Notes: generated from the sequence alone by a model not told the origin. DNA of 64,000 nucleotides from Bacteroidales bacterium (GCA_021739985.1 JAIPAR010000001.1:7781-71780); one strand, 5' to 3'; positions 883 through 46,435 are shown, counted from the stretch's first letter. Made by a program: numbers and translations.

Positions 883-3303
883 ATGTCGAAAGGTAAAGGA
901 AAAGGAATTACAGAGGCTTATAAGAAGGAAGTTCTCGATGATTACCGTATGGCTAATATTAGCCGGAATTGCTCCGTCATCGGGCGAAAAGAAGTATTGA
1001 CCGGAAAAGCCAAGTTTGGAATTTTTGGAGATGGAAAAGAAGTTGCCCAATTAGCTTTGGCTAAGCAATTTAAAAAAGGGGACTGGCGTTCGGGTTATTA
1101 CCGGGATCAAACCTGGATGATGGCCGTTGGCTTATTCTCCCCGGAAGAGTTTTTCTATCAATTATATGGGGAAACAAACCCGGAATTAAGTCCCTCCAAT
1201 GGTGGAAGAACCTTTAATAATCACTTCGGTAGTCGATCAATTAATGAAGATGGAAGCTGGAAAGATTTGACTCAACAACCAAACACATCGGCTGATATTT
1301 CACCAACTGCCGGCCAGATGCCACGTTTACTGGGATTAGCCTGGGCATCCAAACTCTTCCGCCAAAATCCTGAATTACATCAATTTACAACATTATCCAA
1401 CCAAGGAAACGAAGTTGCTTTTGGCTCCATTGGAGATGCCAGTACATCCGAAGGGCATTTCTGGGAAACTATCAATGCAGCCGGGGTCTTGCAAGTTCCT
1501 ATGGCAATCTCCATTTGGGATGACGGCTTTGGAATCTCCGTTCCTCAAAAATATCAAACTACCAAGCAAAACCTATCTTCCCTCCTGAGTGGGTTCCAAA
1601 GTGATGAGCATGGAAAAGGATTTGAAATCTACACCAGCAAAGGTTGGGATTATCCGCATCTGGTAGAAACTTATCAGCGTGCCATTGAAAAATGTCGCAC
1701 AGAGCACGTACCGGTTGCTATTCATGTGAAGGAAATGACACAGCCTCAGGGCCATTCCACCTCCGGTTCACACGAGCGATACAAAAGTGAAGAACGCTTG
1801 CAGTGGGAAATTGATTTCGACCCAATTCGAAAAATGCGTGATTGGATGATTGAAAGCGGAATTGCAACACCAGCCGAACTCGATCAAGTTGAAGCCGATG
1901 CAATGACTATTACGAAAGATGCCCGCCGTAAGGCATGGGCTAATTTCAAAGGTCCAATCGAAGCAGAACGCGAAAAACTGATTCATATCATTGAAAATCG
2001 TCCTTGCCGTTGCAAACGCGAAGGAATTGATAAACCAGGTCTCGTAGTAGCTGATTTGAAAAAAGTTATCTCTCCCATTCGAAAAGATAATTTCGCAGCC
2101 GCAAAGAAAGTGCTCCGTCATGTGTGCCTCGACTGTAACATTCGCGAAAGTCTGCAATCAGAGCTAAGCGACTGGATGGAAAGAAATTACGAAGATGGCC
2201 ATCAGCGCTATAATACCAAACTATATGTTGAAGATCAAACTTCTGCCGTGCTTGTGCAAGGGGTTAAACCTCAGTACAGTGCTGAAACCAAAGAAGTAGC
2301 CGGCCGGGAAGTCCTGCGTGATAATTGGGATTATATCTTTGCGAATAATCCCAAAGTGGTCATTTTTGGGGAAGATGCCGGTCATATCGGTGGCGTGAAC
2401 CAATCACTCGAAGGTCTTCAAAAGAAATATGGCGAAATTCGGGTTACCGATACCGGAATCCGTGAAAACACCATTATGGGTCAGGGACTTGGACTGGCGC
2501 TCCGCGGATTGCGCCCCATTACCGAGATTCAATACTTCGACTATTTGCTTTATGCGCTCCAAACCATGAGCGATGATTTAGCAACAACCCACTATCGTAC
2601 TGTTGGTGGACAGAAAATTCCGGTTATCATTTCAACACGAGGTCACCGTTTAGAAGGAATCTGGCATTCAGGTTCTCCATTAAGCATGGTTATCAATTCC
2701 ATCCGTGGGGTGTATGTATGCGTTCCACGAAACATGACACAAGCTGCCGGATTCTATAACACGCTGCTGGCAGCTGAAGATCCTGCATTGGTTATCGAAC
2801 CTTTAAACGGATATCGTTTAAAAGAGAAAATGCCTGAAAACATTGGGCATTTCAGAACACCGCTGGGAATTCCCGAAATACTGCACGAAGGAAAAGATTT
2901 AACCTTGGTAACTTATGGTTCCTGCGTTCGAATTGCTCAGGATGCCATCGAACAGCTGAAAGAATTCAATATTTCAGTTGAATTAATTGATGTTCAAACC
3001 CTCTTGCCTTTCGATACCAATCACATGATTGTTGAATCGATTAAAAAGACCGGAAAAGTACTCTTCTTCGATGAAGATGTCCCCGGAGGAGCAACTGCAT
3101 TCATGATGCAAAAAGTGCTGGAAGAACAAAAAGCATTCTATTATCTCGATGCTGAGCCCCGCACATTAGCCGGCGAAGAGCATCGCCCGGCCTATGCCAC
3201 CGATGGAGATTATTTCTCCAATCCGAATGCAGAAAACGTTTTTGAAATCGTTTATGACATGATGCGGGAGAGTAATCCTGTAAAATATCCAAAACTATAT
3301 TAA
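883..3303 (+). CDS. fused alpha/beta E1 component of a thiamine-diphosphate-dependent 2-oxoacid (branched-chain type) dehydrogenase
   Basis: 806 aa. The N-terminal half has E1-alpha-like motifs (GRKEVLTGKAKFGIFGDGKE, IGDASTSEGHFWE). The C-terminal half is transketolase-like E1-beta (VVIFGEDAG..GGV, DTGIRENTIMGQGLGLA). This is the typical Bacteroidota fusion. Confidence 0.9.
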   Translation: MSKGKGKGITEAYKKEVLDDYRMANISRNCSVIGRKEVLTGKAKFGIFGDGKEVAQLALAKQFKKGDWRSGYYRDQTWMMAVGLFSPEEFFYQLYGETNPELSPSNGGRTFNNHFGSRSINEDGSWKDLTQQPNTSADISPTAGQMPRLLGLAWASKLFRQNPELHQFTTLSNQGNEVAFGSIGDASTSEGHFWETINAAGVLQVPMAISIWDDGFGISVPQKYQTTKQNLSSLLSGFQSDEHGKGFEIYTSKGWDYPHLVETYQRAIEKCRTEHVPVAIHVKEMTQPQGHSTSGSHERYKSEERLQWEIDFDPIRKMRDWMIESGIATPAELDQVEADAMTITKDARRKAWANFKGPIEAEREKLIHIIENRPCRCKREGIDKPGLVVADLKKVISPIRKDNFAAAKKVLRHVCLDCNIRESLQSELSDWMERNYEDGHQRYNTKLYVEDQTSAVLVQGVKPQYSAETKEVAGREVLRDNWDYIFANNPKVVIFGEDAGHIGGVNQSLEGLQKKYGEIRVTDTGIRENTIMGQGLGLALRGLRPITEIQYFDYLLYALQTMSDDLATTHYRTVGGQKIPVIISTRGHRLEGIWHSGSPLSMVINSIRGVYVCVPRNMTQAAGFYNTLLAAEDPALVIEPLNGYRLKEKMPENIGHFRTPLGIPEILHEGKDLTLVTYGSCVRIAQDAIEQLKEFNISVELIDVQTLLPFDTNHMIVESIKKTGKVLFFDEDVPGGATAFMMQKVLEEQKAFYYLDAEPRTLAGEEHRPAYATDGDYFSNPNAENVFEIVYDMMRESNPVKYPKLY

Positions 3304-3307
3304 GAAG

Positions 3308-3330
3308 AACCGCGAAAGCGGTTTTTTTTT
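3308..3330 (+). terminator. intrinsic terminator after the E1 gene
   Basis: AACCGC-GAAA-GCGGTT hairpin followed by a run of T, starting 5 nt after the stop codon. Confidence 0.7.
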
Positions 3331-3475
3331 GCTCCAAACGCAACTAAATCTACATTTCGCATCTTCGGACTGTTGGGAAATACTGAATCATCTTTATCTT
3401 CGTTTGATTTTAGCATTCCCTTCCTGTTTAAGTTTGAAAAAACATAAACAAAGGATTAGCCCTAATTTGAAGAAA

Positions 3476-4225
3476 ATGAGAAGTAGCAAACTACTGAATC
3501 TGGCGATTCTTTTTACAATCCTTCCGTTCCTCTTTTCCTGCACTCAGGATGAAGGTTACGGTGGAACCTCGTCCATTATAGGTCAGGTTTATATCAAGTA
3601 TTACAATGATGATTTCAGCCTCTTTTTATATGAGGAGCCAGCCGGGGACGAAGAGGTTTATATTGTTTTTGGAGATGAAGAAGCCTCCGGAGATAATGTA
3701 AACACAACATACACAGGCGATTTCAAATTCGACTATCTTTTCCCGGGGTCTTATGACATCGTGTTTTATTCCCTGGATACCAGCCGTCCCTATCTCGATG
3801 AACAACCCGTGGTGCTAAACGTCAGTCTCGATCGTGAGGAAGATAGAAACCTGGGGATTCAGTATATTTACAAATCCAAAGACTGGGATGAGGGCAGCTC
3901 AACCATTCGCGGTCAAATTTTCCTGATTAATTACAAAAGTGAATCTATTTGGCCTGATTATATGATAGTGAAAGATACATCGTATGCGCAGGACATTGAT
4001 GTGTACCTGGTGTATGGATCTCATCTTCAATATGATGAGCGAATCCGTACCATGGATGATGGAAGTTTTGCATTTACCAATCTCATTCCGGGCAATTACC
4101 GCATTTTTGTATATTCGGAAGACCTCAGCGGAGCCACTCAGTATCAGGTTGTTGAGCGGACCGCCACTATCAGCGATGACATGCAGCTAATTGATTTAGG
4201 AATCATCTATACCGAAAAATTATAG
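3476..4225 (+). CDS. lipoprotein with two tandem CarboxypepD_reg-like beta-sandwich repeats
   Basis: I prefer the internal ATG at 3476 (MRSSKLLNLAILFTILPFLFSC lipobox) over 3329. Two repeats have the pattern S.I.GQ....VY.V.G....G.F.F..L.PG.Y.I..YS.D. Confidence 0.7.
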   Translation: MRSSKLLNLAILFTILPFLFSCTQDEGYGGTSSIIGQVYIKYYNDDFSLFLYEEPAGDEEVYIVFGDEEASGDNVNTTYTGDFKFDYLFPGSYDIVFYSLDTSRPYLDEQPVVLNVSLDREEDRNLGIQYIYKSKDWDEGSSTIRGQIFLINYKSESIWPDYMIVKDTSYAQDIDVYLVYGSHLQYDERIRTMDDGSFAFTNLIPGNYRIFVYSEDLSGATQYQVVERTATISDDMQLIDLGIIYTEKL

Positions 4226-4234
4226 GAATAACAT

Positions 4235-4654
4235 ATGAATAAACTTCTGGCCTTAGGAATATTGCTTTGCCTGGGATTTGTCTCAATGGGACAAACACCC
4301 GACGTCCCTAAAATAGGGATTAAAAGCATTAAAGAAATAGAAACCTCGCTTGAGGATGGACTAAATACTCCTCAACTAACTGAATATAAGCTTTTTGATG
4401 AATCTGGACGAATCCTGGAATGGAAGGAAGTCTCCCTTAAAGGGGAGGTAAAACGTTGGGAAAAGTATAAATACAATCCAAATAGCGAACTCATTGAAGA
4501 AACTTTTCTGGATAAAAGCGGTACTGTTACTTCCAAAGTAGTTACCACCTGGGCGAATGGGCTCAAGGTGAAGAAAGAGTATTATGATGGAAAAAACAGA
4601 CTGAAAAAGACTAAAAAGTTTGAATATGAGTATTATGCTGCCGGCAAACGGTAA
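4235..4654 (+). CDS. small secreted beta-rich protein, unknown function
   Basis: 139 aa with signal peptide MNKLLALGILLCLGFVSMGQ. It starts 9 nt after the previous gene and its end overlaps the next gene's start. Confidence 0.6.
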   Translation: MNKLLALGILLCLGFVSMGQTPDVPKIGIKSIKEIETSLEDGLNTPQLTEYKLFDESGRILEWKEVSLKGEVKRWEKYKYNPNSELIEETFLDKSGTVTSKVVTTWANGLKVKKEYYDGKNRLKKTKKFEYEYYAAGKR

Positions 4655-5393
4655 TATCACGGACTTATTCAAGCCCATTTATCTTCCCGATTTAAAAGAA
4701 CTTGAACTGCTAAATCGGGTGGATCAGAAATTTATTTTCCATGCTGATAAGCTTCCTGCCTTGCTTCAGGATTTAAAAGATGATTATTACGCCTTAGAAA
4801 TCAATCAGGTACGCGTTCAGCGCTATCACACCATCTATTTTGATTCCGAGCAAATGCAATTTTACCTTGATCATCAAAATGGATTACGCCCCCGGCAAAA
4901 AGTTCGGCTTCGGACTTATCTCGAAACCGGGAAAATCTTTTTGGAAATCAAGACCAAAAACAATCGAAATAAAACCTTTAAAACGCGTATTCCGGCTCGC
5001 TTTGAAAATATCCAAAATGAAGAAGCCAATGCTTTTATCCGACAAACGACGCAGTTTGAAGCCATCGAGCTGCATCCAACGCTGGTCAATGAGTTTTCGC
5101 GCTTGACGCTAGTTAGTCCGTTGTATAAAGAAAGGATTACGATTGATGTTAATCTGCATTTTACAGATCCTAATGACAGACAGGGTATTAAATTTGATAA
5201 ACTATGCGTATCTGAAATAAAGACGGAAAAACTATCCGGTAAATCACCCATCTTTTCGATTTTGAAACACCATCAGATTTACCCTTCCCGTTTTAGCAAA
5301 TATTGCATAGGCATCAGCAGTTTGAATCCCCAAATCCGGCAAAACCGCTTCAAGCAAACTTACTTACACATGCATAAATTACACATTTTATAA
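4620..5393 (+). CDS. VTC-domain (polyphosphate polymerase domain-containing, triphosphate-tunnel family) protein
   Basis: LNRVDQKFIFH...YALEINQVRVQRYHTIYFDS...LRPRQKVRLRTY...FLEIKTK resembles bacterial VTC-domain proteins. No TM segment. The start is ambiguous (ATG at 4620, 4626 or 4635). Confidence 0.8.
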   Translation: MNMSIMLPANGNITDLFKPIYLPDLKELELLNRVDQKFIFHADKLPALLQDLKDDYYALEINQVRVQRYHTIYFDSEQMQFYLDHQNGLRPRQKVRLRTYLETGKIFLEIKTKNNRNKTFKTRIPARFENIQNEEANAFIRQTTQFEAIELHPTLVNEFSRLTLVSPLYKERITIDVNLHFTDPNDRQGIKFDKLCVSEIKTEKLSGKSPIFSILKHHQIYPSRFSKYCIGISSLNPQIRQNRFKQTYLHMHKLHIL

Positions 5394-5396
5394 AAA

Positions 5397-6059
5397 TTGA
5401 TTATGGACTCGCTTTTTGGCTTAAGTTTTTTTGAAGCAGATGATTTTCTCAAGCTGTTGACCCGTTTGTTATTAAATACCTTCTTTCTTTTATTGATTGT
5501 AAGGTACTTATACTACAACATCACGCGCCGAAAGGACTATTTGTTTACCTATTTACTCATTGGAACAACGGTTTTCCTGTTGAGTTTCCTGCTCGAGAGT
5601 GTTAAAATCCAGTTAGGTTTTGCTCTGGGACTTTTTGCTGTGTTTGGTATCTTACGTTATCGTACGCAACAGATTCCAATCAAGGAGATGACCTATCTCT
5701 TTATCGTTATTGGTTTATCGATTGTGAATGCGCTGGCCAATAAAAAAATCAGCTATGCTGAATTATTACTCACCAATGGAGTGATTTACCTGATGGCCTT
5801 TTTGCTTGAAAAGCAATTCATTTTAAAACATGAATCAACTAAAAACATCCGCTACGAAAAAATTGAAATGATTAAACCTCAGAATTATAAAGCTTTAGTT
5901 GAAGATTTAGAGGAACGAACCGGATTAAAGATTAATCGGGTTGAAATCGGAAATATTGATTTTTCGAAAGATATTGCCAAGATACGCATCTATTATTACG
6001 ACCAGCAAAATGATATTAATTTGGCCGATAATGAAGGAAACCTGCCGGCTGCGAGCTAA
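5397..6059 (+). CDS. DUF4956-family multi-pass membrane protein
   Basis: 220 aa with several hydrophobic helices and the motif LFAVFGILRYRTQQIPIKEMTYLF. It starts 3 nt after the VTC gene, its usual genomic partner. Confidence 0.75.
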   Translation: MIMDSLFGLSFFEADDFLKLLTRLLLNTFFLLLIVRYLYYNITRRKDYLFTYLLIGTTVFLLSFLLESVKIQLGFALGLFAVFGILRYRTQQIPIKEMTYLFIVIGLSIVNALANKKISYAELLLTNGVIYLMAFLLEKQFILKHESTKNIRYEKIEMIKPQNYKALVEDLEERTGLKINRVEIGNIDFSKDIAKIRIYYYDQQNDINLADNEGNLPAAS

Positions 6060-6741
6060 ACTCACCGCACCGGCAAGCTTGAGTTTCCTGCTTTTAGGCT
6101 TGTTGATGCTGCCTCTGATGGGGCAAAGTCAGCAGGTTGATAGCCGTATGCGTGCCGGACTGATTCTCTCAGGCGATTTGGGAAGCAAGTTTAAAGGCCG
6201 ATTGGGTCTGGAGCAGCGATTCAAGGATAATTTACACCAATACGACCGCTTTCTACTTGAGCCGGAAATTTCTTATGAAGCAAGCAACTCCACCGAAATC
6301 TCGTGGGTTTACCGGGGCAGTCTGGAACAAGAAGAGGGTCGCTTTGTCTGGCAAAACCGAATTGGAATGGCAGGCAGCTGGTGGAAAAATTGCAGCGATT
6401 GGCGTATCAAGTACACACTTAGTTCGCAATACAGCTTGCCGGATTACGACGAGCCGGCGGCATTTTACAATCATTTTGTCCTGCGAAACAAACTAGCTAT
6501 TCGCTATGCCATTTTTGGCACCCGCTTTAGCCCTGAATTCAAAGCAGAACTGTTCACGTCGTTCGAAAACAAGCAAGCCAGAGCCTACCAGCTGCGAACC
6601 AGCCTGCAACTAAACTACCGCCTCACCCGAAACAGTTCATTGGAACTCTATATCATGTATGATGATGAATTTCAGGTATTTAATCCCGAAGATGCCTTGA
6701 TTCTTGGCTTCACGTTTAATAAAAACTTCCTATTTAATTAA
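6031..6741 (+). CDS. putative outer-membrane beta-barrel protein (DUF2490-like)
   Basis: Internal ATG at 6031 gives signal peptide MKETCRLRAKLTAPASLSFLLLGLLMLPLMGQ. The rest has alternating beta-strand-like composition and an aromatic C-terminus (NFLFN). It overlaps the DUF4956 gene's end by 29 nt. Confidence 0.55.
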   Translation: MKETCRLRAKLTAPASLSFLLLGLLMLPLMGQSQQVDSRMRAGLILSGDLGSKFKGRLGLEQRFKDNLHQYDRFLLEPEISYEASNSTEISWVYRGSLEQEEGRFVWQNRIGMAGSWWKNCSDWRIKYTLSSQYSLPDYDEPAAFYNHFVLRNKLAIRYAIFGTRFSPEFKAELFTSFENKQARAYQLRTSLQLNYRLTRNSSLELYIMYDDEFQVFNPEDALILGFTFNKNFLFN

Positions 6742-6916
6742 TCCAGAATTAGCTTTTAGCGACTTAGCTTAGCCTATCTTGCACCCCTGAAGCCGGTTAG
6801 GAATGCGGTCTGCTATGTGATAGCAAGATTTGTGTTTCACGGCTTTTTCCTTTATTTTGTAGCTCGAATCCAATAGGCAATTATTACCTTCATCGACCCC
6901 AAAAAAGAAGCACAAT

Positions 6917-8161
6917 ATGCAACAAAAAGTACTTTTATTAGCTGCTCTGATAGGATTTCTAAGCATCGGTCTTTTCGCCCAATCCGGTTCCAATCCCAAA
7001 CAAAATCGTTACGTTGTGGTAATTTCTATGGATGGGTTTCGGCATGATTATGATAATAGGGCTCATACACCAACGCTTGATTCACTGGCTCGAGTTGGCG
7101 TTCACTGTGAGCGTTTTGTTCCGGCCTTTCCGAGTCTTACCTTTCCCAATCATTACAGCTTAGCTACCGGCTTGTATCCGAACAATCACGGTATTGTGCA
7201 CAACCAGTTTTACGATGCCGAACTGGACAAAATCTATAGCATTGGGGACAGAAAAGCAGTTGAAAATCCTGCTTTCTATGGGGGAGAGCCTATTTGGATT
7301 ACAGCCGAAAAGCAAGATATAATCACAGCCAGCTACTTTTGGGTAGGCAGCGAAGCGGCTATTCAGGGAATGCAACCTAGCTATTGGCATAAGTATCAGC
7401 AAAATATACCATTTAAACAAAGAGCCGACAGTGTTATTGCCTGGTTATCGAAACCAGCCAATCAACGTCCTCATCTTATTATGTGGTATTGGCACGAACC
7501 GGATGGAACCGGTCACGATGCCGGCCCGGAGAGCGCTGAAATTGTTCCTTTGATTGAAAGTCTCGACCGGGAGCTGGGCCTTTTTTTAAAAAGGATGAAC
7601 CGCCTTTCCATCGCTTCACAGATTGATTTTCTGCTTGTTTCAGACCATGGAATGCAGGAAGTGGATGCTGAAAATAAAGTACGCTTTATCGAAGATTATG
7701 TCAATGAATCCTGGGTGGAACGCGTAACAGGCTACAATCCCGTAATGAATATTGATTGCAAAACAGGCTATGAAGATTCAGTGTATCAAAGTCTGGCCAA
7801 AGGCGACCATTTCAAAGTCTTTCGAAAAGGAGAATTTCCGGAATCCTGGCATTATGGAACTAATCCACGGGAACTTGAAATAACGGTTGTAGCTGATTCG
7901 GGTTGGGTATTCCGCTCTAAATCAAAATCTTATGATACACATGGAGCGCATGGTTATGATCCCCGGAATTCGAATATGCACGCCATATTTTATGCAGCCG
8001 GCCCCTCGTTTAAAAAGAATTTTACCATTCCCATGCTTGAAACGGTAGATTTATATGGCATCATTTGTCGAAGCTTACATCTTATCCCTCAAAAAACCGA
8101 TGGAAATGCCGAGCGATATAATGATATCTTCCTGATTAATCTTCCTCCATCGCTGCAATAG
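6917..8161 (+). CDS. secreted ectonucleotide pyrophosphatase/phosphodiesterase (ENPP, alkaline-phosphatase superfamily)
   Basis: Signal peptide, then VVISMDGFRHDY, PSLTFPNHYSLATGLYPNNHGIV, WHEPDGTGHD, VSDHGM and GAHGYD metal and nucleophile motifs. Confidence 0.9.
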   Translation: MQQKVLLLAALIGFLSIGLFAQSGSNPKQNRYVVVISMDGFRHDYDNRAHTPTLDSLARVGVHCERFVPAFPSLTFPNHYSLATGLYPNNHGIVHNQFYDAELDKIYSIGDRKAVENPAFYGGEPIWITAEKQDIITASYFWVGSEAAIQGMQPSYWHKYQQNIPFKQRADSVIAWLSKPANQRPHLIMWYWHEPDGTGHDAGPESAEIVPLIESLDRELGLFLKRMNRLSIASQIDFLLVSDHGMQEVDAENKVRFIEDYVNESWVERVTGYNPVMNIDCKTGYEDSVYQSLAKGDHFKVFRKGEFPESWHYGTNPRELEITVVADSGWVFRSKSKSYDTHGAHGYDPRNSNMHAIFYAAGPSFKKNFTIPMLETVDLYGIICRSLHLIPQKTDGNAERYNDIFLINLPPSLQ

Positions 8162-8204
8162 TAAGCGCATTTTTACAACAAGCAAAATGTAAACATTCCC
8201 CTGA

Positions 8205-8936
8205 TTAATCCTCTTCTACCGGTTTGACTGATAATATATCTCCCAAATTAAAAGATAGACCCGTATAAATTTGAACAAATATCATTTGATTAATAGCTGT
8301 ATTCACTACATTCACAAAGTCACTTTCTGCTTGGTTATTCAAATCGGCCCTCAGACCAATGCCCAAATTCCACCACATTTTCTGACGGATGGGAATCTTT
8401 ATTCCGGTTTTAAACTGCAATGAAAATACTCCACTTGTCATTTTCCCTTTTACTTTACCCCCATAATACACTGTATCAGTTTCAATTGAGGTAAAAATGT
8501 CTTCCGACTTTATAAGATATCCATTGACGGAATTATAAAAAAGCCAAGCCATGGAAGGGCCGCCGGCGATATAAAATTGAATCCTCCTATCCCAGGTATA
8601 TTCGATTTGATATCCAAAGACAGCATAATTTAATTGCATGTCCAGGTTGTTATTTCCAAATTTTGGTTCATTTACCCAGCTACTTGTAAGATGAAAAGCA
8701 GTATAGCTATAATCCACGGAAAATACGCTACTTACTTCCTTCTTATTGGTATATTTCAACTCTACTCCCAGCAATCCACCCAAACCTGGCTCCAGAGTCA
8801 ATGATGTCATTTTATCATCCAGTTCCCTGGTGTGATAAATCATAGGCTGATAGCCTGAGTAAACGGATAAAATTTGTTGTCCTATCAAAGTGTTGGCAAT
8901 CAATATCCAACCCAGTAGCATAATGGCTTTTTTCAT
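8205..8936 (-). CDS. outer membrane beta-barrel (porin-family) protein
   Basis: 243 aa with signal peptide MKKAIMLLGWILIANTLIGQ and an alternating aromatic/Gly-rich strand pattern. Confidence 0.65.
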   Translation of the reverse strand: MKKAIMLLGWILIANTLIGQQILSVYSGYQPMIYHTRELDDKMTSLTLEPGLGGLLGVELKYTNKKEVSSVFSVDYSYTAFHLTSSWVNEPKFGNNNLDMQLNYAVFGYQIEYTWDRRIQFYIAGGPSMAWLFYNSVNGYLIKSEDIFTSIETDTVYYGGKVKGKMTSGVFSLQFKTGIKIPIRQKMWWNLGIGLRADLNNQAESDFVNVVNTAINQMIFVQIYTGLSFNLGDILSVKPVEED

Positions 8937-9186
8937 CTTTAACTAATCTTAGTTCTTATGTATGCTGTATTTTTCACGATGATATGTCCAGGGAAGCAAT
9001 CTCGTAAAGTGTATTTTTTATCTAATGGACATGTCATAATTCAGCTATATCTTTACAACGTTAAATTGTGAAAAGGATTCTCCGGCAAAGCCTATAAAAG
9101 TAAAAAAAAAGCCAGTAATCCTAATCACCGTCATAAAATTCTGTAAAGTCATTCATTCATCGATTATCAATCTTTTTTTTAACACT

Positions 9187-10257
9187 ATGAAGATACAAAG
9201 TTCGAATCCATCAGCCGATATCCACCTTAAATTTCAGGATAAGAAGCCCGGAATGATTTTTCTGTATAGTCTGCTGTCCGGATTCTTTCTATTGTCCTGT
9301 GGCCCTTCGAAATCATCTGAATATAACCATTTTATGGGATTAACCCAAGGGACAACCTATCATATCACCTACAAAGGAGCTGAAAATTACAAGCCTCAAA
9401 TCGATTCTCTGTTGGCTGAGTTCGACACTTCCTTATCAACTTATAATAAAGAATCGCTCATAACAGCCATCAATGAAAACCGTAGTGATTCAGCCGACCG
9501 CTTTTTAACATACTGCGTCGAACAAGCCTTACTAATTTGCCAGGCATCAAATGGAGCCTTTGATATTACCATAGGTCCTTTGGCAAATAGCTGGGGCTTC
9601 GGGTTTAAAAACAAAGAAACAATTACCCCGGAGAAGATTGATAGTCTCTTGCCGTTTGTGGGTTGTGACAAAGTATCTATCGTTGGAAACCGAATTATCA
9701 AAGCATCTCCGGAAGTGATTCTGAATGTAAATGCGATTGCTCAGGGCTATGCAGTGGATGTGGTTTGCGAATGGCTTGAATCAAAAAAAGTTAGCAATTA
9801 TATGGTAGAAATTGGGGGGGAAGTAAAAGTGAAAGGCTTAAATCCTCATCAAAGCGAGTGGAAAGTGGGCATTAATGAACCGATTGATGATTCGCTGAAT
9901 GTCAATCAGGATATTCATGAAGTGGTACGGATAAGTGAGCATGCCATGGCAACTTCCGGCAATTATCGCAAATTCTATGTGGAGAATGGCGTAAAATACT
10001 CGCATACGCTGGATCCCAAAACAGGGTATCCTGTGAAACATAATTTACTTAGTGCCTCCGTATTGGCTAAAACTTGTATCGAGGCGGATGCCTATGCAAC
10101 AGCTTTTATGGTCGTTGGATTAGAAAAAGCACTGGAAATCCTGAAACTACACCCCGAGCTGGAAGCCTATTTTATCTATGCTGACCCGAATGGAACTTTT
10201 CAAACTTATTATACCCAGGGGATGAAGGAACATCTTACACCTGACGAAAATCAATAG
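9187..10257 (+). CDS. apbE: FAD:protein FMN transferase ApbE (lipoprotein)
   Basis: Lipobox FFLLSCG, plus GAFDITIGPL, NAIAQGYAVD, ATSGNYRKF...HTLDPKTGYP and DAYATAF. An alternative start is ATG 9253. Confidence 0.9.
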   Translation: MKIQSSNPSADIHLKFQDKKPGMIFLYSLLSGFFLLSCGPSKSSEYNHFMGLTQGTTYHITYKGAENYKPQIDSLLAEFDTSLSTYNKESLITAINENRSDSADRFLTYCVEQALLICQASNGAFDITIGPLANSWGFGFKNKETITPEKIDSLLPFVGCDKVSIVGNRIIKASPEVILNVNAIAQGYAVDVVCEWLESKKVSNYMVEIGGEVKVKGLNPHQSEWKVGINEPIDDSLNVNQDIHEVVRISEHAMATSGNYRKFYVENGVKYSHTLDPKTGYPVKHNLLSASVLAKTCIEADAYATAFMVVGLEKALEILKLHPELEAYFIYADPNGTFQTYYTQGMKEHLTPDENQ

Positions 10258-38627: not shown

Positions 38628-41351
38628 ATGAAAAAGCTCTATTTTCTTTTCGCTTTGCTGCTTTCTGCTCTTCTTTCACAGGCTCAGATATTTACGTTCT
38701 CAGGACAAGTTAGAGACTATGAAACCGGAGAAACATTAATTGGTGCGAACGTCCTGGTGAAACAAGGACTTGGAACAATAACTACTCCGGATGGAAATTT
38801 TTCTATCCAACTCACCAAAGGGAAATACAGCGTTGTTGTCTCCTATGTTGGATTCGACCCGGTAAAATTTGAGTTAAATCTGGAAAAAGATGTATATAAA
38901 CTCTTTAATCTGAAACCTCAAATGATTGGTGAAATTAGTGTCGTATCTGATGTAGCCCGCGAAAGAGAAACTCCGGTAGCATTTAGTACGATTAAGCCCG
39001 CCAAAATTGAAGAAGAATTGGCTGCAAGGGACTTGCCCTTAGTTTTAAATTCAACACCGGGTGTTTATGCAACCCAACAAGGGGGAGGCGATGGAGATGC
39101 CCGTGTAAATATCAGAGGTTTTAACCAAAGTAACCTTGCAATTATGCTCGACGGAGTTCCAGTTAATGACATGGAGAACGGCTGGGTATATTGGTCAAAT
39201 TGGTTTGGTCTGGATTTAGTTACCCGCTCCATGCAGGTACAACGAGGCTTATCGGCCTCCAAACTCACAATTCCTTCAGTGGGTGGAACCATGAATATCA
39301 TTACCAAAGGAATTGAAACGAATCGCGAAACAAGATTTAAACAAGAGATCGATGGAGATGGAAAATCGAGATCCTCTCTAAGCTTTACTTCCGGCAAATT
39401 AAAGAACGGTTGGGGTTTTACATTAGCCGGTTCGTATAAAGGAGGGGATGGCTATGTGGATGAAACCTGGACAAAGGCCTGGTTCTATTATGCCAAAATT
39501 GATAAAAGAGTTGGAAACCACATTATTTCATTTTCTGCAATGGGTGCGCCTCAGGAACATGGGCAACGATATTACAAACGAGCTATTGCAACCTACGATT
39601 CAGCGTATGCTGTTTCTCTTGGCGTAGATATATTCCCCACCTATACAAATTTAGGGGATAAATACAACCAAAATTGGGGCTATCTGGAGAGATGGACCGG
39701 ATCAATCATAGACACCATCTTTCATCCCGCTATGCCAAATGTGGCCACTAAATTTATTTATGACACAACTCACGTTGAGAAAGAGCGCCTCCATTATAAA
39801 TATAATCAATACCATAAACCCATGTTTAATTTGAGAGATTTTTGGACTATTAACGATAAGTTATACGTTTCAAATATCTTATACTTATCCCTTGGTCAGG
39901 GAGGAGGTTCTTCAACGGCATCATCCCTTAATGATTCCAACCTGGACGAATTTGGACAAATAAACTGGCAAAACATCTATAATAATAATCGAACGGTTAA
40001 TAATATTGACGCAACCTATAGTGAGACCCTCTTTAAGGCAGGAAATTACCGGGTAATGAATGTAAACGAGCATATCTGGTACGGACTCTTATCAACAGCA
40101 AACTATAAGCAAAATAACAATCTTACCTGGTCAGGAGGAATTGACTTAAGATCATATAAAGGAAATCATTATCAAAAAATTATCGATTTACTGGGAGCTG
40201 ATTATGCCATAGATATTGACGACGCCAACCAGGAATCTCCAGTCAAAAAGGTAGGAGATAAAATCTATTTCCACGATAATGCCTGGGTAAACTGGGCTGG
40301 TTTGTTTGGTCAGGTTGAATATACGAGTGGTTGCTGGAGCCTCTTTGGAAATTTAAGCGCAGCCGAAACAGGATACAAAAAAATCGACCTGTTTAAACTG
40401 CCAACGGATTCTCTGAGAGAATCCGGTTGGCTCTATAAAACCAGCTTGACTATAAAGGGTGGCGCTAATTATAATATTAATGAACAATCTAATCTTTTTA
40501 TGAATACCGGTTTTCTGTCTAAAGCCCGCTCTAGCAACAATATCTACAATGGCTACCTTGCCAAATTTAGAACGAACACCGAAAATGAGAAAATATATGC
40601 CTTTGAATTAGGCTATTCCTTTCATAATCCAATCTTTGCATTTAACCTAAATGCTTATTATACGTACTGGAATGGTAAACCCATGAATAATATGTATTTT
40701 AAAGATGATGAAGGGGACGACCTTGTTGGATACATTAATGGAATTAACGAATTACACCAGGGAATTGAATTAGATTTTATCTACAAGATACATCCAAAAC
40801 TACAGTTTCAAGGACTTGTTTCTATTGGAGACTGGACCTACCAATCCATCGCAGATTCCGTGGCCTGTTATAATGCTGATAATCAAACTCAGTTTGTTAA
40901 ATATGCCAGCTTTAATGCTACCGGAATTCATGTTGGAGATGCAGCTCAAACACAATTTATGGGACAGCTTCGCTTTGAACCGATTAAAAACTTGTACATC
41001 TCAGCACAATACATCTATTTTGACCGATATTATGCAGATTTTACACCTACTCTAATGGATGAAAGTTCCTCGATTTCATCAAGTACAGACCCAATTGACT
41101 CCTGGAAAATCCCAGCCTACGGACTTATGGATTTAAATATGGGTTATGGTTTTAAAGTGCAAAAATCAAGAATTGATATTCGCTTTAGTATGACTAATGT
41201 GTTGAATACCTTATATATTTCTGATGCAACAAATAATGACCAGTATATTTATTCCACTTTCCCAACAGACAGAGGATACGAAGCATCTACTTCAAGTGTA
41301 TTCCTTGGACTTGGAAGAAGATTTAATACTTCGGTAAGCATCTCCTTTTAA
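38628..41351 (+). CDS. TonB-dependent outer-membrane receptor with N-terminal CarboxypepD_reg domain (non-SusC type)
   Basis: Signal peptide, FSGQVRDYETGETLIGANVLV, plug motif GDARVNIRGFNQSNLAIMLDGVPVND, a long beta-barrel and a terminal Phe. Confidence 0.9.
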   Translation: MKKLYFLFALLLSALLSQAQIFTFSGQVRDYETGETLIGANVLVKQGLGTITTPDGNFSIQLTKGKYSVVVSYVGFDPVKFELNLEKDVYKLFNLKPQMIGEISVVSDVARERETPVAFSTIKPAKIEEELAARDLPLVLNSTPGVYATQQGGGDGDARVNIRGFNQSNLAIMLDGVPVNDMENGWVYWSNWFGLDLVTRSMQVQRGLSASKLTIPSVGGTMNIITKGIETNRETRFKQEIDGDGKSRSSLSFTSGKLKNGWGFTLAGSYKGGDGYVDETWTKAWFYYAKIDKRVGNHIISFSAMGAPQEHGQRYYKRAIATYDSAYAVSLGVDIFPTYTNLGDKYNQNWGYLERWTGSIIDTIFHPAMPNVATKFIYDTTHVEKERLHYKYNQYHKPMFNLRDFWTINDKLYVSNILYLSLGQGGGSSTASSLNDSNLDEFGQINWQNIYNNNRTVNNIDATYSETLFKAGNYRVMNVNEHIWYGLLSTANYKQNNNLTWSGGIDLRSYKGNHYQKIIDLLGADYAIDIDDANQESPVKKVGDKIYFHDNAWVNWAGLFGQVEYTSGCWSLFGNLSAAETGYKKIDLFKLPTDSLRESGWLYKTSLTIKGGANYNINEQSNLFMNTGFLSKARSSNNIYNGYLAKFRTNTENEKIYAFELGYSFHNPIFAFNLNAYYTYWNGKPMNNMYFKDDEGDDLVGYINGINELHQGIELDFIYKIHPKLQFQGLVSIGDWTYQSIADSVACYNADNQTQFVKYASFNATGIHVGDAAQTQFMGQLRFEPIKNLYISAQYIYFDRYYADFTPTLMDESSSISSSTDPIDSWKIPAYGLMDLNMGYGFKVQKSRIDIRFSMTNVLNTLYISDATNNDQYIYSTFPTDRGYEASTSSVFLGLGRRFNTSVSISF

Positions 41352-41393
41352 TCTATCAAATGATCATTATCGCCAATTAAACTAGATAATCAA

Positions 41394-43568
41394 ATGAAAA
41401 ACCTCCTTCTTTCGCTGATACTTGTTCTATCTGCCTTATCAATCCTGGCTCAGCCAATAAACTATTACCAAGGTACGCAAGGTTTAACAGGGACTGCTCT
41501 TAAAGCTCAATTGCACAATATTATTGATGATCATTTAGAGTATCAATATTCGACCGTTAAACAAATTCTCCGCCAAGCCGATGAAGACCCAAATAATCCG
41601 GATAACCTGATTCTCATTTTTACGGGCTGGTCTATTCCAAAAGCTAATTTCGCCGTATATCTTGATTCAGTTGATTACTGGAATCGGGAACATATTTGGG
41701 CGAAATCACATGGTGATTTTGGTACTGACCCAGGACCCGGAACCGATTGCCATGCGCTTAAACCTGTTGACAATACAGTTAACTCGGCCAAATCGAATAA
41801 AGATTATGACAATGGTGGAACTCAATATTATGACAATGGAGTGCCTACCGGCTGCTTTACCGATGCCGATTCCTGGGAACCTATTGACTCACAAAAAGGA
41901 GATATCGCACGCATGATTTTTTATATGGATCTCCGGTATGAAGGGGATAATAGCGAACTCAACTTAACTGTTGTTGACCAGGTAAATACATATCCTGACC
42001 CCATGCACGGGAAACTATCAACTCTCCTCCAATGGCATCAGCAAGACCCGGTAGATGATTTTGAAAGAAGACGGAATGATGTCATTTTCCAATGGCAAAA
42101 AAATAGAAATCCATTTATCGACTATCCTGATTATGTAGAAAGGATTTGGAACAATTCTATTCCAAATCCTATTGTGTTATCAAATGCCTCTATAAGCCCC
42201 ACCGAACCCGAACCTTTACAGGATGTAGTATTAGAAATCAATATTACTTCAGGCTTACGGTCTATTAATTCAGCTACGCTGTATTGGGGAACTTCATGGG
42301 GTACGATGACCAACAGTATCTTAATGAATGCAACCGGAACCGTTTACTCTGCCCTCATTCCAGGTCAGCCTGCCAATCAAAATGTCTATGTAAAAATTGT
42401 CGCAGAAGATGGAACTGACTCAAATTATACTACCATTACCTATCATGTAGCCAATTACCCCTTTTCCGGAACAATTACTCCCATTCCGGAAATTCAGGGA
42501 CCTGGAAGTGCCACTCCTTTTTCCGGTCAGAGTAAGACAATCTCCGGCATTGTGACGGCAGCCTTTGGAGCCGATTTCTTTGTTCAAAGCGGCCAGGGCC
42601 CCCGAACTGGTGTTTATCTCTATAACTCCGGCTATTTCCCGGCAGTTGGCGATAGCGTTATTGTTACCGGAGAAGTTTCTGAATACTATGGGAAAACAGA
42701 AATCATCAATATTTCAGACTACTATTATATCTCTTCGAATAACCCGGTTCCAGACCCAATCATTCTTACGTCAGGCGAAGCCTCCAACGAAGATTATGAA
42801 TCCGTACTGGTAAAACTGGTTAATGTGCAGTGCGTGCGAGATACCCTTTATGGAATGTGGATTGTTAACGATGGTACCGGTGATTGTTTGATTCATAACT
42901 CAGCTATTTACACTCACCCTTATGCTATTGGCGAATACTACGACATTATTGGGGTGATGAATTATGATTTCGACCAATTTAAAATCGAATTGCGCAGTGC
43001 CGATGACGTAGAAACCGGAACCGATGAAGCGGCTCCTTTTATCATTTCTGCCACCCCGGCTACTCCAACCATTCTAAATATCATTTTTAATGAAAAACTC
43101 CAGCCTACGGGAGTAAATACGCTTAGCAATTATTCAATTAACAATGGAGTAAACATCACCAATGCCATGCTCCATTCCATCGATAATCGCAAGGTAATTC
43201 TAACCGTATCCGGCATGAATGGTGGTGATTACACCCTCACTGTCAATAACCTGATGGATTTGGCAGGAAATGCAATTACAAGCACGAGCTTTAATTTTAG
43301 CTACCTCGATAATCCTGAACTAAATGCATCCGCTTTTAACCTTTATCCAAACCCGGCCTCTGAACAAGTTGAATTATATCTCCCTGAAAACCTGAATCGA
43401 AGTACCATTTACCTATACGACCTGCAGGGACGTATTGCATTGGAAAAATCAGTCTCCCCAGGTGAAACGGTGGTAAAACTTGACCTTCGGAGCTTGCTTT
43501 CAGGTATCTATCTGGTTAAAATTTCCAACGAAAACTTACTGTTTATTAACAAACTGATTGTTGAATAA
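41394..43568 (+). CDS. T9SS-secreted multidomain endonuclease I family nuclease
   Basis: NREHIWAKSHG, HALKPVDNTVNSAKSNKDY, GDIARMIFYMDLRY and FQWQKNRNPFIDYP (endonuclease I/Vvn/Bsn-like). These are followed by Ig-like, OB-like (VTGEVSEYYGKTEI) and SbsA-Ig-like modules and the T9SS tail LYPNPASEQV...SGIYLVKISN. Confidence 0.88.
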   Translation: MKNLLLSLILVLSALSILAQPINYYQGTQGLTGTALKAQLHNIIDDHLEYQYSTVKQILRQADEDPNNPDNLILIFTGWSIPKANFAVYLDSVDYWNREHIWAKSHGDFGTDPGPGTDCHALKPVDNTVNSAKSNKDYDNGGTQYYDNGVPTGCFTDADSWEPIDSQKGDIARMIFYMDLRYEGDNSELNLTVVDQVNTYPDPMHGKLSTLLQWHQQDPVDDFERRRNDVIFQWQKNRNPFIDYPDYVERIWNNSIPNPIVLSNASISPTEPEPLQDVVLEINITSGLRSINSATLYWGTSWGTMTNSILMNATGTVYSALIPGQPANQNVYVKIVAEDGTDSNYTTITYHVANYPFSGTITPIPEIQGPGSATPFSGQSKTISGIVTAAFGADFFVQSGQGPRTGVYLYNSGYFPAVGDSVIVTGEVSEYYGKTEIINISDYYYISSNNPVPDPIILTSGEASNEDYESVLVKLVNVQCVRDTLYGMWIVNDGTGDCLIHNSAIYTHPYAIGEYYDIIGVMNYDFDQFKIELRSADDVETGTDEAAPFIISATPATPTILNIIFNEKLQPTGVNTLSNYSINNGVNITNAMLHSIDNRKVILTVSGMNGGDYTLTVNNLMDLAGNAITSTSFNFSYLDNPELNASAFNLYPNPASEQVELYLPENLNRSTIYLYDLQGRIALEKSVSPGETVVKLDLRSLLSGIYLVKISNENLLFINKLIVE

Positions 43569-43606
43569 ACATTTTTCTTCATCAATCCTTATTCATTAAA
43601 AAATAC

Positions 43607-45043
43607 ATGAACAGCTATTTGAAACCTACAGGGTATAAATCAGTTTATACCTTGTACCTGCTTAGTAAGCAAGCCGAAATTTTGCCGGCTCTTTTTTCGG
43701 AAGATGAAACCCGTTTCATCCTTCAGGAAAAAGAAAAGAAACACGATTTAGTGCATCTCAACCGCTTGTCGAGTCAGCTTTTTATCCAATTCCTGGATAC
43801 TGAAAATCTGAATTATAAAACCAACGAAAAAGCACGGTCTGAAGCATCCGGAGTATGCAAAAAACTTAATTCGTTGAAGGCTAACGAACTGCATATCATC
43901 GATTTAATTGAGGAAAAAGCACTCACTCTGGCTTATGCCGAAGGACTTATCCTGAACAATTATCAGTTTATCAAATATTATAAAAATCAGGAAGAGAAGA
44001 AAAATTCACTGGAATCGCTTTTCATTACGTCACCAGTCGTTTCGGATGATGAAATGCATGAACTTCAAGTTGTCACCGAAGCTGTTTACCGGGCACGAAC
44101 CTGGATAAACGAACCAGTTAACTATTTGACTGCTGTTCAGCTCTCGGAAGAAATTCGTGAACTGGGTCATCAATGCGGTTTCCAGGTTGAAGTCTTTGAT
44201 AAATCCCGCATTAAAGCCCTTAAAATGGGAGGATTGCTTGCTGTAAACAAAGGCAGCCAGGATCCACCAAGCTTTAATATCCTGGAATGGAAACCAACAA
44301 ACGCAAAAAACGAACAGCCTTTAATTCTCGTAGGAAAAGGTGTTACGTATGATACCGGAGGACTTTCTTTAAAACCTACTTCCAATAGCATGGATTACAT
44401 GAAATCGGATATGTCAGGCGCCGCCGCTGTTGCCGGCCTTATCTCCGTGCTGGCTCAACTTAAATTGCCCGTTCATGTAATTGGACTTATACCGGCCACC
44501 GATAATCGACCCGGTGAGAATGCTATTACTCCCGGCGATATCATTGAAATGCACAATGGCCTGTTTGTCGAAGTACTTAACACTGATGCCGAAGGACGAT
44601 TAATTCTGGGCGATGCACTTAGCTATGCCCAGCGTTATCAGCCGGAACTGGTAATCGACCTCGCCACACTAACAGGCGCTGCATCGGTAACCGTTGGTAT
44701 CTATGGCTCCATTGTCATGGGAAATGTGGGTGAGCCTATCATGACTGAGCTTAAAAATGCCGGCTTTGAAACCTATGAACGATTAGTAGAGCTTCCGATG
44801 TGGGACGAATATGGCGATATGATTAAATCGGATGTGGCTGATATTAAGAACAGTACCAAGCGCGATGGCGGAACTATTACAGCCGGGAAATTCCTGGAGC
44901 GTTTCACCGATTATCCCTGGGTGCATTTAGATATCGCACCCTCTGCCTTCCTCCACAGCAACGAAAACTACAAACCGCAAGGTGGCGTTGGCGTAGGGAT
45001 TCGGCTTTTGTTTGAATTTATCAAAAAGCACTATTTAGCTTAA
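43607..45043 (+). CDS. pepA: M17 leucyl aminopeptidase
   Basis: VGKGVTYDTGGLSLKP, MKSDMSGAA and NTDAEGRLILGDAL. Confidence 0.92.
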   Translation: MNSYLKPTGYKSVYTLYLLSKQAEILPALFSEDETRFILQEKEKKHDLVHLNRLSSQLFIQFLDTENLNYKTNEKARSEASGVCKKLNSLKANELHIIDLIEEKALTLAYAEGLILNNYQFIKYYKNQEEKKNSLESLFITSPVVSDDEMHELQVVTEAVYRARTWINEPVNYLTAVQLSEEIRELGHQCGFQVEVFDKSRIKALKMGGLLAVNKGSQDPPSFNILEWKPTNAKNEQPLILVGKGVTYDTGGLSLKPTSNSMDYMKSDMSGAAAVAGLISVLAQLKLPVHVIGLIPATDNRPGENAITPGDIIEMHNGLFVEVLNTDAEGRLILGDALSYAQRYQPELVIDLATLTGAASVTVGIYGSIVMGNVGEPIMTELKNAGFETYERLVELPMWDEYGDMIKSDVADIKNSTKRDGGTITAGKFLERFTDYPWVHLDIAPSAFLHSNENYKPQGGVGVGIRLLFEFIKKHYLA

Positions 45044-45056
45044 GAACCCGGCAGGT

Positions 45057-46352: not shown

Positions 46353-46435
46353 CAGGTAAAGTTTGCGGCAAAAGTACGCTTTTGTTAGCAGTTCTCCGGA
46401 CATAAGCTTACTTTTGACCATTATTAATTCAGACT

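Follow-up and report, generated by a model that had tools for sequence, protein, structure and literature searches.

A VTC-DUF4956-DUF2490 envelope operon of Bacteroidota and its possible role in polyphosphate export

Bacterial polyphosphate (polyP) is attributed to PPK1 and PPK2, and the VTC complex is treated as a eukaryotic invention (e.g., PMC13318637, PMC12526157). In the yeast VTC complex, synthesis is coupled to passage of the chain through a channel that is lined with rings of Lys and Arg residues. In streptococci and clostridia, a cassette consisting of cotH, a "poly-phosphate polymerase" gene, and genes for DUF4956 and DUF4832 proteins is found beside pel operons, and the corresponding bifidobacterial cassette has a diguanylate cyclase/phosphodiesterase gene in place of DUF4832 (Whitfield 2020, PMC7112168). 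The NELoc-2 locus of C. perfringens contains VTC, membrane protein, and CotH genes as well (PMC2879425). In S. intermedius, aggregation in artificial sputum fell by half when either the DUF4956-like gene SIR_1592 or the CotH gene SIR_1594 was deleted, with the DUF4956-like mutant making more Pel and the CotH mutant making less, and the synteny of SIR_1592-1594 (DUF4956, VTC, CotH) was stated to be absent outside pel loci (PMC12345266). The neighbouring B. thetaiotaomicron genes BT3498 and BT3499 carry DUF4956 and DUF2490 annotations, respectively (PMC10434189). Here, we describe a five-gene operon built around a VTC-domain protein and a DUF4956 membrane protein in a Bacteroidales bacterium. 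The operon occupies positions 3476-6741 of a stretch of 64,000 nucleotides (nt) (GCA_021739985.1 JAIPAR010000001.1:7781-71780), which we refer to as the window, and an earlier note on this DNA had proposed that the operon encodes a trans-envelope machine that makes and exports a phosphoanhydride polymer.

The five open reading frames (ORFs) described in that note, together with their gaps and overlaps and the 175-nt gap that precedes a secreted ENPP phosphodiesterase gene, were all reproduced in our ORF list. The operon consists of the following genes:

3476-4225, plus strand: lipoprotein, 249 amino acids (aa)
4235-4654, plus strand: small secreted protein (the putative YD-repeat protein), 139 aa
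4620-5393, plus strand: VTC-domain protein, 257 aa, with the start probably at ATG 4626
5397-6059, plus strand: DUF4956 membrane protein, 220 aa, with the start probably at ATG 5403
6031-6741, plus strand: DUF2490 protein, 236 aa, with a signal peptide

The lipoprotein and small-protein genes are separated by 9 nt, the small-protein and VTC genes overlap by 35 nt (29 nt when counted from ATG 4626), the VTC and DUF4956 genes are 3 nt apart (9 nt from ATG 5403), and the DUF4956 and DUF2490 genes overlap by 29 nt. ATG 4626 is the more likely VTC start because a 96%-identical homologue (P0001) starts there, and ATG 5403 is the likely DUF4956 start because the homologue P0121 starts at that position. 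The arrangement is not due to chance, since it recurs in many genomes. Profile searches return the VTC, DUF4956, and DUF2490 families, as well as the family of the ENPP neighbour, above their cut-offs, while NCBIfam models matched none of the five operon proteins. The predictions described below place the gene products in the cytoplasm, the inner membrane, the secreted/lipoprotein layer, and the outer membrane, as had been proposed. Our preferred reading, which we put somewhat short of probable, is that a VTC-type polymerase working on a non-homologous inner-membrane conduit and an outer-membrane barrel would export polyP, perhaps for the use of secreted CotH kinases.

The VTC-domain protein matches Pfam VTC (PF09359) with E=4e-32 and 112.1 bits (cut-off 23) across profile positions 1-234 of 235, and VTC is its only domain at E<=0.1, with no SPX domain found at that threshold. 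The protein contains neither a signal peptide nor a transmembrane (TM) helix, including in its AlphaFold2 (AF2) model, in agreement with its description as a soluble protein. When this model (predicted local distance difference test (pLDDT) 87.9, predicted template modelling score (pTM) 0.87) was searched with Foldseek, ranks 1-13 were Vtc4, Vtc3, and Vtc2 (E about 1e-13 to 3e-11), headed by the Vtc4 entries 3g3r/3g3q and followed by E. coli YgiF, plant TTM3, and other CYTH/triphosphate tunnel metalloenzyme (TTM) proteins. The protein is thereby predicted to fold as a closed beta-barrel tunnel that is closest to Vtc4.

In yeast Vtc4, the side chains of K200, R264, R266, K281, R361, K458, S457, and Y359 hold the triphosphate and E426 holds Mn2+. 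Mutation of any one of the eight triphosphate ligands leads to less cellular polyP, and K458 is the sole triphosphate ligand that is replaced in the inactive Vtc2 (I522) and Vtc3 (L527) (bioRxiv 10.1101/2023.01.27.525886). We took over the Vtc4 numbering from a HMMER alignment with the Vtc4 crystal construct by means of a +185 offset. This offset is self-consistent, in that the known residues fit their letters. In this alignment, K200 corresponds to K37 of the window protein, R264 to R96, R266 to R98, K281 to K111, Y359 to F159, R361 to R161, R373 to R172, E426 to E199, S457 to S226, and K458 to K227. The mapped residues are invariant in 24 homologues (34-96% identity) with the exception of position 159, which is F or Y. 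The Lys, Arg, and Glu residues of the tunnel, whose comparison with Vtc4 the earlier note had called for, are therefore retained, and the change of Y359 to Phe is the single ligand deviation. Because the Vtc4 set is otherwise kept in full, K458 included, the window protein looks like the active Vtc4 type. The bacterial enzyme thus resembles the eukaryotic VTC complex in having a homologous catalytic domain with all of the triphosphate and metal sites but Y359. It differs in that it is a separate polypeptide without SPX or a TM segment, has Asp in place of T198, and is accompanied by a putative outer-membrane barrel and by secreted accessory proteins.

To place these genes in a wider context, we assembled a sample of 80 VTC-seeded loci from one-genome-per-species contigs, all from Bacteroidota and with VTC proteins of 36-43% identity, and searched their ORFs with hidden Markov models iterated from the window proteins. 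A DUF4956 gene is located directly downstream of VTC in 79 of the 80 loci, and a DUF2490 gene is present in 72, mostly as the next gene after DUF4956. The lipoprotein gene was found in 40 loci, mostly directly upstream, and the small-protein gene in 23, mostly between the lipoprotein and VTC genes. The exact five-gene order is present in 18 of the loci and is seen in Prolixibacteraceae, Flavobacteriales, and other Bacteroidota assemblies. The core of the system is VTC-DUF4956-DUF2490. Its same-strand overlapping order is found in Bacteroidaceae, Prevotellaceae, Flavobacteriales, Prolixibacteraceae, and Chitinophagales, and the order is also kept in Arcicella, Emticicia, and Flectobacillus, and in other phyla. 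Co-conservation of the five genes, as anticipated in the earlier note, thus holds for the core trio and does not extend to the lipoprotein (half of the loci), the small protein (∼30%), or the full order. These two proteins are lineage-specific accessories rather than core components.

A reverse sample, seeded with a divergent DUF4956 profile, contained 66 Bacteroidota, 6 Chloroflexota, and 4 Marinimicrobia loci among others. VTC is adjacent to DUF4956 in 62 of the 66 Bacteroidota loci and DUF2490 is present in 45, so that VTC and DUF4956 are near-obligate neighbours from whichever side the sample is drawn, in line with the recurrent pairing stated in the note. All six Chloroflexota loci contain the VTC-DUF4956 pair, none contains DUF2490, and two have CotH directly downstream, while all four Marinimicrobia loci contain DUF4956-DUF2490. 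A Deinococcus plasmid carries CotH-VTC-DUF4956 without DUF2490, and DUF4956-VTC adjacency is found in all records of Aminobacter and Shinella plasmids. One Aminobacter plasmid (L083, 5980-8232) has the reversed order, with an S8 peptidase, DUF4956, VTC, and a phytase-like esterase. The view that the genes share no joint function and are neighbours by descent only can draw on the variation of the accessory genes between lineages, but it is almost certainly wrong given that the same-strand overlapping core is kept across Bacteroidota lineages and other phyla and that DUF4956 is also found fused in frame to DUF2490 or CotH. Recurrent ORF clusters upstream of the module in gut Bacteroidales loci were also considered and were rejected as shadow ORFs of opposite-strand RRF and RsgA genes.

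The DUF4956 protein matches PF16316 with E=1.6e-51 and 174.8 bits (cut-off 30.6), a family for which we count 1981 representatives of 50%-identity clusters at E<=1e-3. Its AF2 model (pLDDT 76.6) depicts five helices (residues 14-139) followed by a C-terminal beta-alpha-beta-beta domain (146-201), which supports the multi-pass membrane protein that had been claimed. The C-terminal domain is ACT-like, with weak Foldseek matches to ACT/KH-like small domains only. Across Bacteroidota, DUF4956 is 58-70% identical, versus ∼40% for its VTC partner. In 118 diverse representatives, a near-invariant GFALGLFAxFGIxRYRT motif is located at the end of TM3, in which residues F83 and R89 do not vary and R87 is conserved to at least 90%. 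The distribution of charges in 55 homologues, with an acidic N-terminus (mean of 4.7 D/E) and loops 1-2 and 3-4 that are rich in K/R, suggests an N-out/C-in topology, which would put both the RYR motif and the ACT-like domain on the cytoplasmic side, together with the VTC protein. Three in-frame fusions of DUF4956, one to CotH (P0253, 671 aa) and two to DUF2490 (P0273 and P0357, 460 and 422 aa), all have a linker in which the downstream partner's own signal peptide or lipobox is still present, an arrangement for which a cytoplasmic DUF4956 C-terminus would be the sole workable topology. These fusions may be genuine, with cleavage after membrane insertion, or may be gene-call read-throughs, and the support that they lend to the topology is weak. 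No VTC-DUF4956 fusion was found in the 150 best family representatives, in which only the CotH and DUF2490 fusions are seen. The module thus shares with eukaryotic VTC the genetic pairing of a soluble tunnel enzyme and a membrane protein of several helices, the latter with conserved basic residues at its predicted cytoplasmic face, and the enzyme is predicted to be on the ATP side of the membrane.

The DUF2490 protein matches PF10677 with E=1.2e-14 and 55 bits (cut-off 29.8) and begins with the signal peptide MKETCRLRAKLTAPASLSFLLLGLLMLPLMG, with the boundary before Q. The family is catalogued as a putative porin family (TC 1.B.81, PMC4827864). Its members are predicted to form outer-membrane barrels, and 51 of 60 sampled proteins have Sec signal peptides (bioRxiv 10.64898/2026.07.29.741452). 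We thus regard the DUF2490 protein as a putative outer-membrane beta-barrel, and the earlier description of a barrel-like protein with a signal peptide stands, the signal peptide and family match from our analysis and the barrel from the literature. Among 72 operon-linked homologues, R63 (99%), R110 (95%), R152 (99%), and R189 (95%) are conserved, positions 129, 131, and 154 are basic in 84-96%, and E173 and several tyrosines are likewise conserved. A small predicted barrel with near-invariant Arg/Lys residues is reminiscent of the OprP/OprO phosphate/pyrophosphate porins and the KdgM/NanC acidic-sugar porins, and we suggest, from shared features rather than homology, that the conserved residues could line an anion path. 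DUF2490 genes occur in the Bacteroidota and Marinimicrobia loci, and none was found in the six Chloroflexota loci, the Deinococcus plasmid, or the Gram-positive cassettes (PMC7112168). Among the loci seen, this distribution is as expected for the outer-membrane leg of a trans-envelope path.

The same arginines would suit an anion-uptake porin, and the direction of transport could be imagined in reverse: DUF2490 would admit external polyP or another phosphoanhydride, DUF4956 would carry it inward, and the VTC protein would run backward (polyP + ADP -> ATP) or hydrolyse the chain, so as to scavenge phosphorus or energy. In Bacteroidota, polymers are usually captured by a surface lipoprotein working with a binding protein, the other enzymes of the TTM group act as hydrolases, with YgiF and plant TTM3 among the structural matches above, and phosphorus-scavenging neighbours are sometimes present, such as ENPP in the window and the phytase-like esterase on Aminobacter plasmids. 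We nonetheless consider uptake quite unlikely. The ENPP linkage is not conserved (2 of the 80 VTC-seeded and 3 of the 66 DUF4956-seeded loci), and the recurrent partners, which are CotH kinases, LTD proteins, carbohydrate binders, and Gram-positive exopolysaccharide operons, do not imply nutrient uptake. In addition, hydrolytic TTMs typically show ExExK at the N-terminal motif site, whereas the window protein has R-x-D-x-K, where Vtc4 has R-x-T-x-K, and keeps K458, which is the Vtc4 polymerase pattern.

Returning to the export of polyP, the simplest reading of the operon is as a functional analogue of the eukaryotic VTC machine, and we can outline how its products might work together. The VTC protein would extend a phosphoanhydride chain in its tunnel from ATP and a divalent metal, as Vtc4 does, which is suggested by homology and residue conservation. 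Genetic linkage, the predicted topology, and the analogy to yeast are consistent with docking of the enzyme on the cytoplasmic face of a DUF4956 oligomer, close to its RYR motif and ACT-like domain. The polymer may then be fed through DUF4956 into the periplasm, a step for which the cytoplasmic-face arginines and the Lys/Arg rings of the VTC channel offer a further parallel, and could leave the cell via DUF2490, as the phyletic pattern and the conserved basic residues of the barrel would allow. More speculatively, the lipoprotein and the putative YD-repeat protein may handle the product at the cell surface, and the exported polymer might serve as phosphoryl donor or substrate for secreted CotH kinases or modify the surface matrix. 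Trans-envelope polymer export as a whole is an inference. A broader formulation, in which bacteria own a VTC-type machine that would deliver polyP via DUF4956 and, where there is an outer membrane, via an arginine-lined DUF2490 barrel to the surface, there powering or being used by secreted CotH kinases, is one that we consider doubtful.

A number of observations weigh against export. In the enzyme, the residue at the Y359 position is Phe, and Y359F lowers polyP in yeast (bioRxiv 10.1101/2023.01.27.525886); the T198 position is an invariant Asp in the bacterial proteins; and sequence cannot separate a polymerase from a hydrolase. The literature that we searched contains no biochemical characterization of a bacterial VTC-domain, DUF4956, or DUF2490 protein, consistent with the remark in the note that the first two have no assigned biochemical function. 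Homology of DUF4956 to the yeast VTC channel was examined and rejected: hhalign gave a probability of 0.3% against Vtc1, the sequence of which was verified against 8i6v_A. With five helices and an ACT-like domain, DUF4956 is unlike the three-helix Vtc1/DUF202 subunits, and its TM part has no PDB match by sequence profile or by Foldseek. The eukaryotic parallel drawn at the outset therefore holds for the catalytic domain, which is homologous, and is an analogy only for the membrane protein. At the outer membrane, a buried charge network is present inside the barrel in some DUF2490 models (bioRxiv 10.64898/2026.07.29.741452), which could indicate a plugged rather than an open barrel. Deletion of the VTC gene SIR_1593 in S. 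intermedius had no reported effect (PMC12345266), a single genetic data point that counts against a necessary role for the VTC gene. Finally, several loci contain DUF4956 without an intact adjacent VTC. A Pseudoalteromonas plasmid (L081) has LTD, a VTC remnant, DUF4956, and a "porin"; two Marinimicrobia loci (L096 and L101) have Fpg-DUF4956-DUF2490 and LTD-DUF4956-DUF2490; and a Pirellulaceae (Planctomycetota) locus (L131) has CotH-DUF4956. The occurrence of DUF4956 beside CotH or LTD in such loci suggests that DUF4956, rather than VTC, is the hub and that VTC is its usual neighbour.

These loci, together with the S. intermedius mutants, in which loss of the DUF4956-like or CotH protein alters Pel while loss of VTC has no reported phenotype, could also be explained by a regulatory or signalling module. 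DUF4956 would in that case be an MgtC-like regulator of surface-matrix or secreted-kinase output, the VTC protein would be an accessory triphosphatase or nucleotide-processing tunnel enzyme, and nothing would be translocated. The streptococcal DUF4956 homologue has been described as MgtC-like or as having an "MgtC domain" (PMC12345266), and the proteins are built like MgtC/SapB (Salmonella MgtC, E. coli YhiD), in which a helical membrane part precedes an ACT-like domain in the cytoplasm, in keeping with ACT/KH-like small domains being the sole Foldseek matches. We were unable to reproduce this relationship at the sequence level: none of the 118 DUF4956 members matches PF02308 (E<=1), hhalign against E. 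coli YhiD gave a probability of 0.2%, and the resemblance of DUF4956 to the MgtC family is one of architecture only. MgtC is itself a regulator, not a conduit. A regulatory module also leaves unexplained why the barrel is present in the Bacteroidota and Marinimicrobia loci sampled and missing from the Chloroflexota, Deinococcus, and Gram-positive cassettes, and why the full set of Vtc4 polymerase residues, including K458, is invariant. On balance, we find this explanation unlikely.

The accessory proteins were examined in more detail at the level of their families. The signal peptide of the lipoprotein ends with the lipobox LFSC, and Cys22 is followed by TQDEGYGG. Nearly all lipoprotein homologues with an intact N-terminus contain the Cys and a (D/E)-x-G-x-GG motif, which we take to resemble the Bacteroidota signal for surface-exposed lipoproteins. 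The two halves of the protein are related to each other (33% identity, E=6e-10 in an internal repeat comparison), and it is reasonable to view the protein as two beta-sandwich repeats of the transthyretin/CarboxypepD_reg-like kind, with one to three such repeats across the family. The claim of two CarboxypepD_reg-like repeats is thus upheld by the internal repeat and not by Pfam, where only the C-terminal half matches CarboxypepD_reg, fn3_3, and SdrD_B, with scores that are close to or under the threshold. The small protein has a signal peptide that ends at a G/Q boundary and no Pfam match of its own. Its 22 aligned homologues contain a repeated Y-x-Y-D-x-x-G motif in variable number, with weak matches to RHS_repeat in 10 and to MORN_2 in 8. 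These features point weakly to YD/RHS-like beta-hairpin repeats and agree with the small secreted beta-rich protein that had been noticed.

Secreted proteins are also recurrent outside the operon proper. CotH is found on the same strand, immediately beside the core, in 21-24 of the 80 VTC-seeded loci, as expected from the earlier statement that VTC and DUF4956 genes often occur alongside CotH, and the operon-linked CotH proteins often carry LTD domains and domains of the type IX secretion system (T9SS). The recurrent same-strand partners are CotH proteins with a T9SS tail, LTD proteins, and Cthe_2159-like carbohydrate binders, the last of these downstream in 16 of the 80 loci. The secreted CotH/LTD proteins are recurrent clients of the module. 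The DUF4956, VTC, and CotH families occur together in Bacteroidota, Chloroflexota, Marinimicrobia, and the Deinococcus plasmid, and we noticed no pel gene, annotated or otherwise, in their surroundings; the synteny is widespread outside pel loci, contrary to what has been stated (PMC12345266). The Bacteroidota module and the Gram-positive pel cassette (PMC7112168; S. intermedius SIR_1594-1591, PMC12345266) have in common the VTC-DUF4956 pair and a recurrent secreted CotH. They differ in that the window has no pel locus or DUF4832, in that its CotH gene is 40 kb away rather than contiguous, and in that the Bacteroidota version also includes DUF2490 as well as the lipoprotein and the putative YD-repeat protein.

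A conserved secreted protein of ∼150 aa follows the trio in a set of Prevotellaceae/Bacteroidaceae loci (L008, L031, L035, L036, L047, L060, L070, and L074), at about +2.4 to +2.7 kb from the VTC start. The one member scanned, from L031, gave a weak match to the T9SS tail. The Cthe_2159-like protein, seen in 16 of the 80 loci overall, is a large beta-helix carbohydrate binder.

The remaining features of the window that concern the boundaries and possible partners of the operon are as follows:

3308-3330, plus strand: intrinsic terminator of the upstream E1-dehydrogenase gene, GAACCGC-GAAA-GCGGTT followed by a T run
3403-3406 (TTTG) and 3429-3436 (TAAGTTTG), plus strand: promoter-like elements of the Bacteroidota type, picked out by eye
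6789-6859, plus strand: long imperfect hairpin ending in GGCTTTTTCCTTTATTTTG, tentative
6917-8161, plus strand: secreted ENPP phosphodiesterase, a neighbour outside the operon
46436-48736, plus strand: CotH kinase-family protein, CotH (1.1e-58) and Por_Secre_tail, 40 kb from the operon

The CotH protein of the window contains both a CotH domain and a T9SS C-terminal sorting domain, which substantiates the T9SS-exported CotH that had been reported at this position. It is physically outside the operon and is best treated as an unlinked candidate partner. The region in which it is found (38628-48736) is rich in T9SS cargo and outer-membrane genes, including a TonB-dependent receptor with a CarboxypepD_reg N-domain (38628-41351) and an Endonuclease I with Big_5 and Por_Secre_tail (41394-43568). 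An M17 aminopeptidase and a DEAD-box helicase are encoded between these genes and the CotH cargo gene.

The ENPP protein matches Phosphodiest (PF01663) with E=3.9e-88, and both this match and the 175-nt spacing are as first described. That ENPP belongs to the system and trims or recycles an exported polymer is, in our estimation, very unlikely. The gene is on the same strand, encodes a secreted protein, lies 175 nt downstream of DUF2490, and is kept in this arrangement in relatives with 53-70% identical VTC. However, the unrelated E1 dehydrogenase and ApbE genes are retained by these relatives as well, and because these flanking genes are syntenic too, the retention of ENPP reflects local synteny only. 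Elsewhere, the linkage drops to the 2 of 80 and 3 of 66 loci given above. In the two mapped VTC-seeded loci, ENPP is encoded on the other strand at a distance of 4-5 kb, and in the window the spacer contains a T-tract hairpin as well as a TA-rich element that resembles a promoter. ENPP was rejected as a member of the system on these grounds, and the suggestion that it trims the product finds no comparative support. A 243-aa secreted protein without a Pfam match (8205-8936, minus strand) follows ENPP. The pair adjoins the operon in the relatives with 53-70% identical VTC (L086, 8205-9419 and 9432-10157) and does not do so in more distant genomes.

Upstream, the terminator hairpin begins 5 nt past the TAA stop (3301-3303) of the E1-dehydrogenase gene and is the 5' boundary of the operon unit. 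The automatic terminator scan gave this hairpin on the minus strand only, and the plus-strand hairpin and T run were read directly, which corroborates the clean terminator of the note. The Bacteroidota promoter consensus is TTTG / TAnnTTTG, and the promoter-like elements, a match judged by eye, end 40 nt before the first ATG. Downstream, an intrinsic terminator 3' of DUF2490 was sought and rejected, as there is only the imperfect hairpin with a T tract. The fold of this hairpin at 6789-6859 is no better than that of shuffled sequence (z=0.49), and its position alone is suggestive; tentatively, it may mark the 3' end of the operon and the start of the ENPP promoter region. No riboswitch or other known RNA (Rfam) was found in 3000-9300. 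A weak match to the Enterococcus small RNA RefA1 at 6828-6990 (minus strand; 25 bits versus a gathering threshold of 94, E=0.023) is almost certainly due to chance.

The E1 dehydrogenase that adjoins the operon upstream (883-3303, 806 aa) is a single chain with E1_dh, Transket_pyr, and Transketolase_C domains (alpha and beta fused), and its position is syntenic in close relatives. Further upstream, two small minus-strand ORFs, at 219-413 (64 aa, with a Cys-rich tail) and 424-720 (98 aa), encode one hydrophobic helix each. A pair of similar size and position is present in L085 (1619-1813 and 1824-2114) and L086 (1627-1815 and 1822-2118).

The VTC-DUF4956(-CotH) combination is already in the literature as an uncharacterized accessory cassette, and the individual families have been catalogued. 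What appears to be undescribed in the literature that we searched is the Bacteroidota version with DUF2490, the lipoprotein, and the putative YD-repeat protein, the spread of the module outside pel loci, the preservation of the Vtc4 catalytic residues, the finding that DUF4956 is not homologous to the VTC channel, and the phyletic distribution of the barrel. The claim of a polymerase coupled to export would, if true, surprise the polyP field, and its present basis is comparative and structural inference. If the hypothesis is true, the VTC system and PPK1/PPK2 would make the same product, polyP from ATP, by unrelated folds and mechanisms, with the polyP of the PPK enzymes being cytoplasmic and their synthesis not coupled to a membrane conduit.

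These findings show that a VTC homologue with the Vtc4 catalytic residues occurs in several Bacteroidota lineages, including relatives of gut Bacteroides and Prevotella, and in several other phyla, and that its membrane partner is under much stronger conservation than the enzyme. If the enzyme is active, it would constitute a second bacterial route to polyP, one that is built for delivery across the envelope. Under the broader formulation above, such a route would supply extracellular polyP independently of PPK or lysis and would explain how kinases exported by T9SS or Sec work where ATP is absent. The module therefore bears on the source of extracellular and surface polyP, on the roles of DUF4956 and DUF2490, and on the phosphoryl donor of secreted CotH kinases. 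Should the enzyme prove to be a hydrolase or a regulator, the module would still be an envelope system that is linked to matrix and biofilm loci in Gram-positive pathogens.

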